A DNA stretch of 41,751 nt from a virus. Taxonomy: Duplodnaviria > Heunggongvirae > Uroviricota > Caudoviricetes. Within the stretch, counting starts at the first letter, position 1. Every line of letters starts with the position of its first letter. This document shows, piece after piece, positions 5,026 to 10,088 of the stretch. The position numbers and the translations under genes were made by a program. A model generated the notes under the pieces. The model was not told the DNA's origin. It searched no databases and saw only the letters and a list, made by a program, of their open reading frames with translations. The DNA is taken from positions 1 through 41,751 of IMG/VR virus record IMGVR_UViG_2563366965_000001; one strand, 5' to 3'.

Positions 5026-5388
5026 TTAATGACCTGCTGCGCGGAGTTTTCCGTCAGGCTCACCGGCAAGAGTCAGTAATTGTCCCTGGTCTTCCTGCAG
5101 AATAGTCAGGCGACCACCGCGATTGACATACATCGGCGTTTCGGTGGTGTCTTCTTCGGAAATTTTCCCGCGGTTAGTCGGGCGAACATATGAGAGTTTG
5201 TGTTTGATTTTCACACGGTTCTCATCAAATGGTTCGATTTCCAGGTTGAGTGAGACCTTACCTTTGGTTTTCGTGTTCATCACACCGGAAGCGACTTCAC
5301 TTAGAACTGCGCCGATTTTGGTTTCAAATACGCCGCCGTCCAGCTCCCCGATAAATGCCTGCACATCAGTACTGCGTTCGCTAGCCAT
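5026..5388 (-). CDS. YfdP-like hypothetical protein (120 aa)
   Basis: Start at the internal ATG (5388) with GAGGAG RBS gives 120 aa; the longer listed ORF would run into the GC-rich spacer. Confidence 0.5.
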   Translation of the reverse strand: MASERSTDVQAFIGELDGGVFETKIGAVLSEVASGVMNTKTKGKVSLNLEIEPFDENRVKIKHKLSYVRPTNRGKISEEDTTETPMYVNRGGRLTILQEDQGQLLTLAGEPDGKLRAAGH

Positions 5389-5436
5389 TTTGCTGCTCCT
5401 CATCATATCGACCCTGCAAGGTCGGTTGGTTTCTCC

Positions 5437-5525
5437 ACAAAACAGAGAAGAACACCTGCGGTGGCAGCCGCCCGGATGGATTGGGTTATGAGCCCGTCGT
5501 CCGGTGATGCTCTTCTCTGTTTTGT
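5437..5525. repeat. Long inverted repeat: 15-bp perfect arms (ACAAAACAGAGAAGA / TCTTCTCTGTTTTGT) separated by 59 bp, inside a GC-rich structured spacer
   Basis: Arms at 5437-5451 and 5511-5525 are exact reverse complements; a second 9-bp perfect palindrome-hairpin (GGTACCAGC ... GCTGGTACC) lies at 5535-5569. Confidence 0.7.
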
Positions 5526-5702
5526 AAAAAGGACGGTACCAGCCGGAAGCAATGGTACAAGCTGGTACCGCCAGGACTACACACAGCATAAAGTTGTGGT
5601 GCCGGGTGCCTCCCGGTGCCTGGCGAAGGTTGCACACCAGACGGGTGGGTATCCACAGAAGGTCGACTGTCAGCCTCAACCTTAACCCGCGTGCGCTGAG
5701 CC

Positions 5703-5792
5703 GCATTCACCACAACGCTAAGGATTCTCTTTGGTTGAAAATACTTAGCTGTTATGTGCCTGTCTTTTCACCACTTCAGGCTCGGTGGTATC
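5703..5792. repeat. Direct repeat A, copy 1 (90 bp; leader/promoter-like block upstream of small plus-strand ORF)
   Basis: 89/90 identical to 6358-6447; partial similarity extends about 15 bp further upstream. Confidence 0.9.
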
Positions 5793-6071: not shown

Positions 6072-6264
6072 AAAAAGGCCATTTCCATTCAGGGTCTGAT
6101 GGAAATACTTCAGCCTGTTCCAAAGCACGGCGTAAAGAGAATACAACTCCAGCCATAATCTGATGTTTCCCATTGGTCCAGCTATCGCCGCTCTGATCTA
6201 CAGGAGCGGCTATGTCGTATGACCAAACGACTTCACCACTATTGTTTAAAATCTGGACTTTCAT
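5989..6264 (-). CDS. Hypothetical small protein (91 aa, MKVQILNN...), cassette 1 minus-strand gene; 3' end overlaps the convergent plus-strand ORF by 83 nt
   Basis: Start region lies inside repeat B copy 1; GGAGG upstream (long 12-nt spacing); the C-terminal 25-30 residues may not be translated. Confidence 0.4.
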   Translation of the reverse strand: MKVQILNNSGEVVWSYDIAAPVDQSGDSWTNGKHQIMAGVVFSLRRALEQAEVFPSDPEWKWPFSICPNSESTFQKIGQKVALEEHQPTVS

Positions 6265-6285
6265 TTTGTTCTTTAACCTCCAGAT
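6223..6285. repeat. Direct repeat B, copy 1 (63 bp; contains the RBS and first 14 codons of the MKVQ gene plus a 4-codon remnant ...SGG-stop of an upstream gene)
   Basis: 60/63 identical to 6851-6913. Confidence 0.9.
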
Positions 6286-6357
6286 ACGGGCGTTTAATTG
6301 CCCCGCCGAACAGCTCTTTTCCGCAATAGCTGCAATGTCTTTCGCGCATCAGCCTGC

Positions 6358-6447
6358 GCATTCACCACAACGCTAAGGATTCTCTCTGGTTGAAAATACT
6401 TAGCTGTTATGTGCCTGTCTTTTCACCACTTCAGGCTCGGTGGTATC
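6358..6447. repeat. Direct repeat A, copy 2
   Basis: See copy 1; followed by a different small ORF. Confidence 0.9.
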
Positions 6448-6481: not shown

Positions 6482-6673
6482 ATGACCAAAGAAGAAAAAA
6501 TTCTTTATTTATTCCAACTATCGGTTAAGACTCACACTGCATATCAGACTGCTGCCATGACATCAGATAAAAATTACAGTACGTCAGAAAACCCGATAGA
6601 CGACATAAGCAAGCTTTACGATAAGTTCGAAGCACTACTCGATAAAAAGTTTGCTGAGGCTGGGCTTGAGTGA
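6482..6673 (+). CDS. Hypothetical small protein (63 aa), cassette 2 plus-strand gene
   Basis: AAGGAAA RBS before the ATG at 6482; only ORF covering 6482-6634. Confidence 0.4.
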   Translation: MTKEEKILYLFQLSVKTHTAYQTAAMTSDKNYSTSENPIDDISKLYDKFEALLDKKFAEAGLE

Positions 6674-6811
6674 TTGTTGAATAATCGACAAAACCCAACT
6701 TAAATTTTCGTCAGTGGGCTCGATGCCATGTGCGGTGAGCTCACTTTTCAAAACTCCAAGCAATTCAGAGCTGATTTTCAATATATCTGCTTGATTTCTA
6801 ACTATTCCCAC
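6635..6811 (-). CDS. Hypothetical small protein (58 aa from GTG; 68 aa if the ATG at 6841 is used), cassette 2 minus-strand gene
   Basis: AGGGAGGA RBS 4-5 nt before the GTG at 6811; 3' end overlaps the convergent plus ORF by 39 nt. Confidence 0.4.
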   Translation of the reverse strand: MGIVRNQADILKISSELLGVLKSELTAHGIEPTDENLSWVLSIIQQSLKPSLSKLFIE

Positions 6812-6850
6812 TTTTTCCTCCCTTGGTCTACGCGCGGTCATGTTTTACGC

Positions 6851-6913
6851 CCAAACGACTTCACAGTTATTGTTTAAAATCTGGACTTTCATTTTGTTCT
6901 TTAACCTCCAGAT
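6851..6913. repeat. Direct repeat B, copy 2 (here the MKVQ reading frame is truncated to 15 codons; the ...SGG-stop belongs to the intact ClpX-ZnF gene)
   Basis: Minus-strand reading gives ATG AAA GTC CAG ATT TTA AAC AAT AAC TGT GAA GTC GTT TGG GCG TAA. Confidence 0.9.
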
Positions 6914-7122
6914 TTCCGCGCATCTAAAGGCGCATTCTCATTTGGTGTGAACTGAATAGTTGTGCTGATATTGATTAATGCCCCGACACACAAGACTACG
7001 CACTCAGAGCAGATAGCAACTTCATCTTTTCCGCCTTTGGCGATGATTTTTTTTGCCTGCAGCTCGTTTGCGCCACAAAACGAGCATGTGAAATAACGGT
7101 TCATTTGCGCTCTCTTACACAT
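6901..7122 (-). CDS. Small protein with a ClpX-type C4 zinc finger (ClpX N-terminal zinc-binding-domain-like)
   Basis: CSFCG...(16 aa)...CSECV spacing mirrors the ClpX N-domain CSFCGK...CDEC; first gene left of the cI operator region. Confidence 0.5.
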   Translation of the reverse strand: MCKRAQMNRYFTCSFCGANELQAKKIIAKGGKDEVAICSECVVLCVGALINISTTIQFTPNENAPLDARKSGG

Positions 7123-7199
7123 AGTATTTAACGAATCATCCGGTCATTCATACGCCACCGGCGGCTACTTCGTGGGCGTCCTGCCTGTTCGTTATCTTT

Positions 7200-7288
7200 G
7201 ATATAAAATCTAACTTAACTTAGTTATTATGGCAAGAGAAAACACCAAACTTTTCTTAGTTCGGTGCCTTAGTTAGAGAAGAGAGGTC
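7200..7288. promoter_or_regulatory. OL/PL-like operator region (leftward early promoter)
   Basis: 14-bp palindrome CTAACTTAACTTAG (7210-7223) matches the CTAAN-N4-CTTAG sites seen between cI and cro; further CTTAG half-sites nearby. Confidence 0.4.
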
Positions 7289-7915
7289 TTAGAGTTCGTA
7301 TTGAACTCCTTTGACTACACCAATGATAAGGCAATTACCATTGATAGGGATGTTGGGATACCGAGGATTTAATGGCACTAAAAACTTTTGAGGGCCATCG
7401 ATGACTAATTTTTTTACTGTAGCTTCGTTTGTTCCATCAAGTCGAGCGATGACTATTTTTCCATGACGAGGTTCTGCATCTGGATCTACAATCACTGTTG
7501 CGCCTTCTGGTATTGTTGGGAGGCCATTAGGGTTAGTCATGGAGTCACCTTTAACCTCTAATGCAAATGAGTTATCACCAATCTTTAATGATGTATCTAC
7601 CCACTTGTCCACTTCACTAAACACTTCTGCTGCCCTGCACTCAGTAAACTGCCCAGCCTGAACCCACGATATTACAGGAACTCTGCGCATGTTTGTGACG
7701 AGTTTGCCTTCAAACTCAGCACCATAAAGAATGTAATCTATTGACGTATTGAAGAACTTCGCTAATTTCGAAAGTGCCTCCCCACCAGGGGTATTGATGT
7801 CTTTCTCCCAGTACCCCACAGCAACGTCGCTTACTCCACAAAATTTACCCAATTCTTTCTGGGACGTTCCGGTAACTCTTCTCAGAGCTTTTATACGCTG
7901 ACCAACCGTTTCCAT
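7289..7915 (-). CDS. cI: CI-type phage repressor (XRE helix-turn-helix + S24 LexA-like autopeptidase)
   Basis: N-terminal HTH (QKELGKFCGVSDVAVGYWE); C-terminal GDSM serine motif and downstream lysine (KIVIARL); divergent from the cro-like gene. Confidence 0.85.
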   Translation of the reverse strand: METVGQRIKALRRVTGTSQKELGKFCGVSDVAVGYWEKDINTPGGEALSKLAKFFNTSIDYILYGAEFEGKLVTNMRRVPVISWVQAGQFTECRAAEVFSEVDKWVDTSLKIGDNSFALEVKGDSMTNPNGLPTIPEGATVIVDPDAEPRHGKIVIARLDGTNEATVKKLVIDGPQKFLVPLNPRYPNIPINGNCLIIGVVKGVQYEL

Positions 7916-8012
7916 AGGAGCACCATTTCTTGAATTGCTAAGTAATCTTAGTTTTTATTGACCAAAGATAGATTTGTAATTAGCATCTAATAAAACTTAG
8001 TTTGGAGGGCGT
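7916..8012. promoter_or_regulatory. OR-like region with divergent PRM/PR promoters and at least two 14-bp operators
   Basis: Operators CTAAGTAATCTTAG (7938-7951) and CTAATAAAACTTAG (7987-8000); TTGACC (7958-7963) followed 17 bp later by TAGCAT as a PR candidate. Confidence 0.55.
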
Positions 8013-8213
8013 ATGACAACTGACGATATCGAAAGCTACTTCGGCAGTATTGAGAAAGTTGCTGCTTTTTTCGGCATAACAACTGAAGCCGTTTATCAGT
8101 GGCGAAACCGTCCGGGCCAGTTAATTCCAAAAGGACGTGCAGCAGAAGCTGCATATAGAACTTGCGGACGGTTGCCATTTAAACCTGAGCTTTATGAAAA
8201 ATCTAATGGATAA
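8013..8213 (+). CDS. cro: Cro-like helix-turn-helix repressor
   Basis: 66 aa, GGAGGG RBS; VAAFFGITTEAVYQW resembles a Cro/YdaS-type HTH; divergent from cI. Confidence 0.7.
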   Translation: MTTDDIESYFGSIEKVAAFFGITTEAVYQWRNRPGQLIPKGRAAEAAYRTCGRLPFKPELYEKSNG

Positions 8214-8802
8214 ATCGATTAACAGAAACCACAGAACGATGAGGCTAACCGTGGGTAAGCATCACTGGAAAGTAGAAAAACAGCCTGAGTGGTACGTGAA
8301 AGCTGTCAGAAAAACTATCGCAGCGTTGCCGGGTGGTTACGCTGAAGCAGCTGACTGGCTGGATGTAACAGAAAACGCATTATTTAACCGCCTTCGTGCC
8401 GATGGCGATCAGATTTTCCCGCTGGGATGGGCAATGATTTTGCAACGTGCTGGTGGAACTCACTTCATTGCTGACGCTGTGGCGCAGTCTGCAAATGGCG
8501 TATTTGTGTCTCTTCCTGACATCGAGGATGTGGACAACGCCGATATCAACCAACGCCTGCTGGAGGTCATTGAACAGATCGGCAGTTATTCAAAACAGAT
8601 TCGTTCAGCAATTGAAGACGGTGTAGTGGAACCGCATGAGAAGACAGCAATTAACGATGAGCTGTACCTCTCAATTTCGAAGCTGCAGGAGCATGCAGCA
8701 CTGGTCTACAAAATCTTTTGCGTTTCAGAAAGTAGTGACGCCCGCGAGTGTGCAGCTCCGGGCGCCGTGGCGTGTCGTGACTGTGGAGAAACTAACGCAT
8801 GA
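8194..8802 (+). CDS. CII-like regulatory protein (Phage_CP76 / YdaT-like, tentative); start codon uncertain (8194, 8206 or 8239)
   Basis: Position directly after cro; HTH-like segment [19 protein letters not shown]; stop overlaps the next ATG. Confidence 0.4.
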
Positions 8803-9146: not shown

Positions 9147-10088
9147 ATGAGCACTAAATTAACCGGCTATGTATGGGATGGTTGCGCAGCGTCAGGCATG
9201 AAATTATCCAGCGTGGCAATTATGGCCCGCCTGGCTGATTTCAGTAATGACGAAGGTGTGTGCTGGCCATCAATTGAAACCATTGCCCGCCAGATTGGCG
9301 CGGGGATGAGTACCGTCAGAACGGCTATCGCACGGCTGGAAGCAGAAGGCTGGTTAACGCGTAAGGCGCGTCGCCAGGGTAACCGCAATGCGTCGAATGT
9401 TTATCAGCTTAACGTTGCGAAGCTTCAGGCAGCGGCATTTTCTCAACTGTCAGATTCTGACCCGTCAAAATCTGACGCATCAAAATCTGACCCGTCAAAA
9501 TTTGATGCGTCGAAATCTGGCAAAAAAGCGGGTTTTCACCCGTCAGAATCTGGCGGGGATCCGTCAGTAAAATCAAAACATGATCCGTCAGATAAAAAAC
9601 CTTCTCGTCCGGACGCTTCGCAACCGGACACGCAGACGGATGAACAGGATTTTTTAACTCGCCATCCTGATGCGGTTGTATTCAGCCCTAAAAAGCGCCA
9701 GTGGGGAACGCAGGATGATTTGACCTGCGCACAGTGGCTCTGGAAAAAAATCATCGCCCTGTACGAGCAGGCTGCCGAATGTGACGGCGAGGTGGTTCGT
9801 CCCAAAGAACCGAACTGGACAGCCTGGGCAAACGAAATTCGCCTGATGTGTGTGCAGGATGGTCGTACTCACAAACAAATCTGCGAGATGTACAGCCGCG
9901 TCAGCCGCGATCCGTTCTGGTGCCGTAACGTGCTCAGCCCGTCGAAGCTGCGGGAAAAATGGGATGAGCTTTCCCTGCGCTTATCGCCGTCCGTCAGCAC
10001 ATACACAGAAAAACGTGAAGATCCGTACTTCAAATCCAGTTACGACAACGTGGACTACAGCCAGATCCCGGCAGGATTCAGGGGGTGA
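9147..10088 (+). CDS. Replication initiator (O-like; N-terminal winged-helix replication-initiator domain, repeat-rich linker, C-terminal domain)
   Basis: N-terminus VAIMARLADFSNDEGVCWPSIETIARQIGAGMSTVRTAIARLEAEGWL is typical of phage/plasmid replication HTH domains; 15-bp iterons embedded in the linker coding region. Confidence 0.6.
   Translation: MSTKLTGYVWDGCAASGMKLSSVAIMARLADFSNDEGVCWPSIETIARQIGAGMSTVRTAIARLEAEGWLTRKARRQGNRNASNVYQLNVAKLQAAAFSQLSDSDPSKSDASKSDPSKFDASKSGKKAGFHPSESGGDPSVKSKHDPSDKKPSRPDASQPDTQTDEQDFLTRHPDAVVFSPKKRQWGTQDDLTCAQWLWKKIIALYEQAAECDGEVVRPKEPNWTAWANEIRLMCVQDGRTHKQICEMYSRVSRDPFWCRNVLSPSKLREKWDELSLRLSPSVSTYTEKREDPYFKSSYDNVDYSQIPAGFRG
9456..9515. repeat. Four tandem 15-bp iterons (TCTGACCCGTCAAAA-like) inside the initiator gene, followed by an A-rich stretch to about 9600; candidate origin of replication
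   Basis: Units at 9456, 9471, 9486 and 9501; the second and fourth are near reverse complements of each other; analogous to ori-lambda inside gene O. Confidence 0.5.

Follow-up and report, generated by a model that had tools for sequence, protein, structure and literature searches.

Lambda CIII, which acts on FtsH, and T4 PinA and T7 gp4.5, which act on Lon, are small early phage modulators of the AAA+ proteases of the host. The protein considered here could be a further case: a stand-alone zinc-binding domain (ZBD) of the ClpX type, 67 amino acids long, encoded on the minus strand of an Escherichia coli prophage. The sequence analyzed is IMG/VR record IMGVR_UViG_2563366965_000001, positions 1 to 41,751, and this whole stretch of 41,751 nucleotides (nt) is called the window. 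Like CIII, PinA, and gp4.5, the ZBD protein is a small early phage product that would act on an ATP-dependent protease of the host, and CIII is also encoded in an operon of the leftward early promoter (PL). However, the three known modulators hit FtsH or Lon, copy no protease domain, and have demonstrated activities, and the ZBD protein has no sequence or fold relationship to any of them.

A second precedent is ClpX itself. The purified ClpX ZBD dimerizes and cross-links to RssB, and at 5-20 uM it inhibits RssB-mediated breakdown of sigma-S by ClpXP (PMC7226468). The domain is also indispensable for the degradation of lambda O; it has a hydrophobic side pocket, for which the residues F16 and I46 are named, and this pocket and the lambda O site overlap in an area that also receives adaptors and trigger factor (PMC7804408). 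The isolated ClpX ZBD supplied in trans (PMC7226468) resembles the phage protein in being a ZBD without the motor, and its ability to block RssB/sigma-S delivery is the behavior proposed here. It is an experimental fragment of ClpX, whereas the phage protein is a diverged natural paralog for which ligand binding is only proposed. The E. coli ClpX ZBD (1OVX, 2DS5-2DS8) and the ZBD protein are alike in several respects. Each is a Cys4 ribbon whose knuckles read CSFCG and C-[SD]-E-C-V, each has a pair of short strands and then a C-terminal helix, and both keep the phenylalanine F16 and a KK/RK-[LI]-I-A strand. Unlike the ClpX domain, the ZBD protein is free-standing, phage-encoded, and, to judge from its promoter region, repressor-controlled.

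Domain identity and comparison with ClpX

The gene is defined by the following features.

6901..7104, minus strand: coding sequence of the stand-alone ClpX-type ZBD protein, 67 amino acids, start ATG 7104, RefSeq WP_001083098.1
6901..7122, minus strand: mechanical open reading frame (ORF) of 73 amino acids from the program's ORF list, reading MCKRAQMNRYFTCSFCGANELQAKKIIAKGGKDEVAICSECVVLCVGALINISTTIQFTPNENAPLDARKSGG
7110..7116, minus strand: Shine-Dalgarno-like AAGAGAG, 5 nt upstream of ATG 7104, from reading of the sequence

The protein is a genuine member of the Pfam family zf-C4_ClpX (PF06689) and, by sequence and structural model, a free-standing ClpX-type ZBD. It matches the profile with 41.3 bits (E 1.4e-10) over positions 2-34 of 39, where membership means a score at or above the curated Pfam gathering threshold of 27 bits; the scores of its homologues range over 26-42 bits. 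At E <= 0.1, the only other Pfam result is a weak match to Zn_ribbon_Elf1 (13.7 bits, under the cut-off of 29.8), and no Lar/Ral profile appears. The protein is not a full ClpX, since the ClpX equivalog models score it at 25.8 bits (NF003745, cut-off 359) and 22.7 bits (TIGR00382, cut-off 370.75); these models align just the first ~45 of its 67 residues, and there is no AAA+ module. When all PDB sequences are searched with phmmer, the matches below E 0.01 are ClpX chains only (2ds5, 1ovx).

The predicted fold points the same way. With eight family members as its basis, the AlphaFold model has a predicted local distance difference test score of 74-85 for residues 1-45 and of <50 in the tail, and it has the short strands and C-terminal helix of the ZBD fold. 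The top seven PDB fold matches of this model are ClpX ZBD or ClpX entries, with root-mean-square deviations of 1.4-2.0 A, and the ZBD entries among the fold matches include 2ds5, 2ds6, 2ds8, and 1ovx. Six ClpX ZBD chains reach a target-normalized template modeling (TM) score of 0.70-0.82 against the model; after the top seven matches, the probability is down to 0.2. The domain assignment is not new. The PGAP/RefSeq name of the protein is already “ClpX C4-type zinc finger protein,” one source labels it “transcription elongation factor Elf1,” and it is best described as an uncharacterized member of a known domain family.

The translation start is most likely ATG 7104 rather than 7122, because AAGAGAG stands 5 nt upstream of it, the homologues all begin with MN[RNS]Y, and the RefSeq protein has 67 amino acids. 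In the homologue of phage F1055, AGGAG occupies the position equivalent to AAGAGAG. In the numbering of the 67-residue form, the zinc ligands are C7, C10, C32, and C35; they align with C14, C17, C36, and C39 of ClpX and are invariant in the family. The CSFCG knuckle, a K-[KR]-[IL]-I-A strand, and the sequence I-C-x-E-C-V-x-L-C are common to both proteins. F9, the counterpart of ClpX F16, is invariant across the ZBD family and ClpX, and G11 (ClpX G18) is an invariant column in the family and nearly so once ClpX is included.

The original prediction, a 73-residue protein with a resemblance to the ClpX N-terminal domain and with cysteines spaced as in ClpX, can now be refined. The resemblance holds, both in the PF06689 profile alignment and in the PDB matches by sequence and fold, all of which lead to ClpX. 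The ORF is present at 6901..7122 on the minus strand and carries CSFCG...CSECV, although the protein made from it is likely to have 67 residues from 7104 and not 73. The spacing is not the same: the knuckles are arranged as C-x2-C-x21-C-x2-C, compared to C-x2-C-x18-C-x2-C in ClpX. The hairpin that joins the knuckles is three residues longer, reading AKGGKDEVAIC in the ZBD protein and AGPSVYIC in ClpX (insertion: KGGKDE).

Operon position, accessory slot, and candidate functions

The region between the gene and the repressor upstream of it contains the features below.

7207..7235, minus strand: PL-like sigma-70 promoter, with -35 TTGCCA at 7235-7230, a 17-nt spacer, and -10 TAGATT at 7212-7207 (consensus scan 9/12)
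7210..7259, no strand assigned: operator-like repeats CTAAC-N4-CTTAG at 7210-7223 and CAAAC-N4-CTTAG at 7246-7259 (direct-repeat families D2 and D6)
7239..7270, minus strand: terminator-like 13-bp hairpin and U-rich run directly after the repressor stop (-15.1 kcal/mol, z -2.5)
7289..7915, minus strand: CI-like repressor of 208 amino acids, Pfam HTH_3 and Peptidase_S24 (LexA family) with PHROG matches, RefSeq “LexA family protein”

In e14 and in two Salmonella phages with different repressors, a promoter stands at the corresponding place, and both hexamers align with it. The operator-like repeats, whose general form is CTAAG-N4-CTTAG, recur between cI and cro at 7938-7951 and 7987-8000; they are presumably repressor binding sites, placed as expected for the left and right operators (OL and OR). 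The hairpin adjoins the -35 hexamer of the leftward promoter and overlaps one of the operator-like repeats, and it could thus serve as terminator, as operator, or in both roles. In e14 and Salmonella phage F1055, whose repressors are unrelated, the repressor gene is likewise followed by a hairpin and U-run, so that the arrangement is seen in three immunity types. Since the hairpin stands directly after the repressor stop, it appears to insulate the repressor transcript from PL, which would leave the ZBD gene in the repressed early-left transcript. An intact ZBD homologue is present in 75 IMG/VR loci; in these, the gene lies at a fixed distance behind the same RNA leader, which is described below, and the repressor upstream of this promoter/leader/gene layout belongs to at least eight helix-turn-helix (HTH) or S24-type families. 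The promoter, the operator-like repeats, the terminator-like hairpin, and the persistence of the layout behind at least eight repressor types support the view, already part of the original prediction, that the ZBD gene is the first gene of the leftward early operon.

The close relatives of the protein (E < 1e-15) are few, are confined to prophages of E. coli, Salmonella, and Citrobacter (Enterobacteriaceae), and are all named hypothetical or by their domain. The conserved part of the family is residues 1-47. Its invariant positions include the four cysteines, F9, G11, K18-K19-I20, A22-K23-G24, A30-I31, C39, and V40, among others. Past about residue 47 the sequence is variable, with forms of 57-67 amino acids that have short tails and forms of 86-147 amino acids that have unrelated helical extensions, which match no Pfam family. 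The slot behind the leader is hypervariable as well: in 95 loci, the first ORF falls into 30 unrelated clusters of small proteins (40-195 amino acids), among them the ZBD protein, a 91-amino-acid protein of phrog_3195, and YmfJ-like proteins of e14. The slot resembles a hot spot of early accessory genes.

More distant zf-C4_ClpX proteins, either stand-alone or as two to four tandem copies, are found in many bacteria and a few phages, and cyanobacterial sigma factors, too, carry the domain as an accessory module. Pseudomonas phage PP9W2 (a 65-amino-acid “Clp protease”), Bacillus phage G (gp683), the tandem-ZBD proteins, and the cyanobacterial sigma factors all carry the same Pfam domain without the ClpX motor. 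They differ from the enterobacterial family, within which E is < 1e-15, in their profile E values of 1e-5 to 1e-10 and in their contexts, and they are uncharacterized. Bacterial proteins that consist of two to four tandem ClpX-type zinc fingers and no other domain are common among the distant relatives. Full-text literature searches returned no paper on a stand-alone phage ZBD or a phage inhibitor of ClpX, and the family has no published function. Two candidates for a characterized relative were set aside: Rac prophage YdaE (“zinc-binding protein,” beside kilR) shows no ClpX-type finger in Pfam, and for the ClpX-related protein CxaR of Staphylococcus aureus, the paper describing it makes no mention of zinc and offers no link to the ZBD. 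A C-terminal “F-x-DAP-x-LGT” motif was not used, being present in just 5 of the 20 members examined and at best a loose match here.

What might such a protein do? In the proposed mechanism, the 67-residue ZBD protein would be made once the CI-like repressor leaves the PL-like promoter. As a diverged, free-standing paralog of the ClpX N-terminal domain, it would act on ClpXP at the step of N-domain recognition. It would titrate ligands of the ClpX ZBD, such as the tails of SspB or RssB, UmuD, and N-domain-dependent substrates (e.g., an O-type initiator); alternatively, it might pair with the N-domains of ClpX. By either route, proteolysis that depends on adaptors or on the N-domain would be dampened, leaving ssrA-type degradation unblocked, and the outcome would be an early accessory factor for host takeover comparable to lambda CIII acting on FtsH. 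The idea is mechanistically credible because the ClpX ZBD in trans inhibits RssB-dependent proteolysis by ClpXP and the ZBD is needed for the degradation of lambda O. By these precedents, an early phage ZBD could protect adaptor cargo or N-domain-dependent substrates from degradation. The protein would then presumably bind zinc, dimerize, contact ClpX or its ligands, and so affect proteolysis.

The interest of such an activity is easy to see. How stable phage replication initiators, transposases, SOS proteins, sigma-S, and several antitoxins are is controlled by ClpXP. If the proposal is true, a copy of the ClpX docking domain alone would reprogram ClpXP very selectively; the phage would possess an anti-protease that mimics a domain, a way of acting on ClpXP that has not been described so far. 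It would also provide a tool to separate the N-domain-dependent functions of ClpXP from the N-domain-independent ones in vivo.

That the ZBD protein interferes with N-domain recognition by ClpX, as a decoy or modulator, is the best-supported reading, but a tentative one whose chances are put somewhat below even. In its favor are the specifically ClpX-like domain, the retention of the four cysteines and F9, and the repressor-controlled context of early expression; a slot of alternating small accessory genes is also what would be expected of a host-modulating early gene. Domain identity, predicted fold, zinc-ligand conservation, promoter context, and distribution are directly supported. A number of observations weigh on the other side, beginning with the surface of the domain. 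Where ClpX has I46, the ZBD family varies among G, A, T, S, and V (A42 here), and where ClpX has Y34, the family has alanine throughout; the insertion of three residues into the hairpin is charged, and the acidic or polar helix residues D41, N44, and D45 become V, V, and G, leaving a far more hydrophobic helix. In a comparison limited to F16 and I46, the ligand pocket seems only partly kept, with F16 retained and I46 not conserved. Identity to the E. coli ClpX ZBD is just 36-41% in the fold alignments; the gene does not represent a recently captured host domain.

The distribution of the gene belongs on the same side of the balance. The gene and its leader are found together in ~98 of 5,426 complete E. 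coli genomes, compared to 1,823 with the leader (~19 times as many), so the gene is missing from most relatives of the prophage. It is an optional occupant of a hypervariable slot, and therefore not a core regulator or a fixed partner of the replication module. The C-terminal extensions vary so widely (forms of 61-147 amino acids) that the ZBD could be a generic dimerization handle, and the Pfam domain is shared by proteins that are not known to be linked to ClpXP, namely the sigma factors and the proteins with two to four tandem ZBDs. The decoy reading is thus weakened by the divergence of the surface and by the accessory slot; it is plausible but unproven.

The same observations can be read as those of a compact scaffold for dimerization or protein binding, with a target unrelated to ClpXP and an interchangeable accessory gene (moron-like, possibly anti-defense) to encode it. 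The weightiest of them is the hypervariable slot with its 30 unrelated clusters; the optional presence of the gene in its phage group, the conservation of residues 1-47 alone ahead of variable tails and C-terminal domains, the other architectures of zf-C4_ClpX, and a helix surface strongly unlike that of ClpX all agree with it. Such a scaffold could be directed at a host protein of defense or of the cell cycle, at some other phage protein, or at a phage that superinfects. This is the main rival reading, and its chances are put only slightly lower than those of the decoy. The fold and sequence are specifically ClpX-like with nothing else in the PDB close, F16 of the ligand pocket is kept, and no result suggests another partner. 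In addition, the ZBD protein and three of its neighbors match none of the PADLOC defense models at E <= 0.1, a collection that does not cover anti-defense proteins.

It is improbable that the ZBD protein is instead a nucleic-acid-binding regulator that replaces lambda N (a transcription factor, antiterminator, or antirepressor) or that acts on the leader RNA. The gene does hold the position of N, first after PL, in a leftward operon where no N homologue was found; it is preceded at 23 nt by a conserved structured RNA, and the weak Zn_ribbon_Elf1 match and the Elf1 name in one source hint at transcription. However, the Elf1 score is far under its threshold, a core regulator would not be optional or swap with 30 unrelated ORF families, and the leader, which is present in so many more genomes than the gene, must be independent of the ZBD protein. 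The ClpX ZBD is not known to bind nucleic acids. A restriction-alleviation zinc ribbon of the Lar/Ral type, a class of small Cys4 proteins of early-left operons, is very improbable in spite of its similar size, Cys4 pattern, and operon position. A “restriction alleviation protein” in BFVD is a weak fold match (probability 0.51, TM ~0.42), and the ClpX ZBD matches are far stronger; the Pfam search, as stated, gave nothing beyond zf-C4_ClpX and the sub-threshold Elf1.

The leader RNA between the promoter and the gene

An RNA in a comparable position is the put RNA of HK022, a cis-acting antiterminator that starts near the transcription start of PL in a lambdoid phage without an N homologue (PMC9378689). 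In the window, the following elements lie between the PL-like promoter and the ZBD gene.

7128..7194, minus strand: structured 5' leader of 67 nt (covariance model 92 bits; single copy in the window)
7193-7188 paired with 7135-7130, minus strand: leader helix P1
7161-7157 paired with 7144-7140, minus strand: leader hairpin P2

The leader begins ~13 nt past the -10 hexamer of the promoter, and between its helices runs an invariant stretch of 26-27 nt, CAGGCAGGACGCCCACGAAGUAGCCG. Pairing is well supported by covariation. Among 36 distinct copies, 93.9% of cells are paired as compared to 67% in shuffles, 10 of the 11 pairs change on both sides, and the covariation score is 0.698 versus 0.176 in shuffles. 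As a control, sliding the partners by 1-3 columns gives 19-43% paired. The assignment to the minus strand comes mainly from position, because the excess of G-U pairs over A-C mismatches is just 8 to 4.

The element is far more widespread than the ZBD gene. It is found in 1,823 of 5,426 complete E. coli genomes (about a third) at 83-100% identity, always in unannotated DNA, and the copy of E. coli K-12 lies in e14 between ymfJ and ymfK/cohE (locus L005 2501-2566). It is also present in SfV, SfII, SfIV, ST64B, mEp460, mEp237, and ZF40 and in phages of Yersinia, Klebsiella, Providencia, and Aeromonas. A covariance-model search of genome contigs returned 56 full-length copies with 69-94 bits, all but two of them in Enterobacterales. 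Exact 19-mer matches to the leader core in Planctomycetota, Acidobacteriota, and other distant phyla are coincidences; they score 22-35 bits and lie mostly inside ORFs, typically antisense of a GYFVGV codon run. Several copies per genome occur in Xenorhabdus, with four in Xenorhabdus sp. TCT-1 (L230, L232, L271, L275), which implies either that several related prophages are present or that the element has another use.

The leader and HK022 put are alike in being structured RNAs of ~65-75 nt, beginning no more than a few nt from where PL transcription starts, in the absence of an N homologue. They differ in architecture, since in the leader a single helix encloses an invariant single-stranded stretch and a hairpin, whereas put has two long stem-loops. 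The leader is also single in the window with no copy on the PR side, unlike putL/putR of HK022. The leader was rejected as a homologue of put because its covariance model has no significant match anywhere in HK022, where the best one (E 0.7) falls within a tail gene. An Rfam search at E <= 1 gave no match to the leader, and a full-text literature search for its sequence found no paper.

By analogy with put, one might guess that the leader is a cis-acting element that affects elongation or termination, perhaps in an antitermination or other leader role. It is a separate lead, better supported than the function of the protein, and it may be the more novel of the two findings. One could also combine the two into a single picture, in which the first early product mimics the ClpX docking domain and selectively stops N-domain-dependent ClpXP proteolysis (of adaptor-delivered and O/MuA-type substrates) while ssrA quality control stays intact. 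In the same picture, the leader would be a new class of cis-acting RNA that alters RNA polymerase or Rho sensitivity at the start of PL transcripts in a great many enterobacterial prophages, including e14 of K-12. Taken as a whole, this combined picture is rather unlikely.

Prophage setting and the flanking repeat

The window represents a lambdoid prophage of E. coli, of the e14 / SfV / SfII / CPS-53 type, and the stretch of it that was tested is 99.6% identical to a prophage of E. coli 1332KP. The annotation of the 1332KP prophage includes yfdP, yfdQ, yfdR, a LexA-family repressor, a Cro/CI regulator, YmfL, and DUF4222, and further an O-like HTH protein, YfdN, RusA, and Q. On the other side of the repressor gene, the window contains the following genes.

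8013..8213, plus strand: Cro
8137..8802, plus strand: ORF within which the CII/YmfL-like protein lies
9147..10088, plus strand: O-like initiator

The O-like initiator starts with MSTKLTG, loosely similar to the motifs at the N-termini of Dps (STAKL) and lambda O (TNTAKI) that ClpX recognizes, a weak hint in favor of the decoy reading. Any comparison of the co-occurrence of the ZBD gene with an O-type initiator has to be read with the 3-kb locus flanks in mind, which often end short of the replication gene.

Downstream, the ZBD gene ends in a repeated junction next to a small insertion.

6834..6913, no strand assigned: 80-nt junction leading from the last ZBD codons and stop, through a ribosome binding site, into the next gene (repeat family D1)
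6635-6841, minus strand: 68-amino-acid gene in the insertion (phrog_15476)
6482-6673, plus strand: 63-amino-acid gene in the insertion (phrog_2605)

The junction is repeated directly at 6206-6285 with 89% identity, and the two copies bracket a mosaic insertion of 628 bp. The repeat takes in the first codons of a 91-amino-acid gene, and the copy at 6834-6913 leaves a 15-codon stub, MKVQILNNNCEVVWA. This 91-amino-acid gene begins 9 nt past the ZBD stop in 32 of 45 related loci, and the 68-amino-acid gene comes first in 11 of the 45, which is the layout of the window; the insertion is missing from most relatives. A 40-amino-acid ORF at 6239..6361 (HCSYCGKEL) was considered as the remnant of a second ZBD gene and rejected, as its alignment is the shared 80-nt junction alone and not a decayed copy. 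Upstream of yfdP, overlapping long ORFs occupy 5026-5713 on the minus strand, and their RefSeq counterpart in the near-identical prophage is a frameshifted pseudogene.

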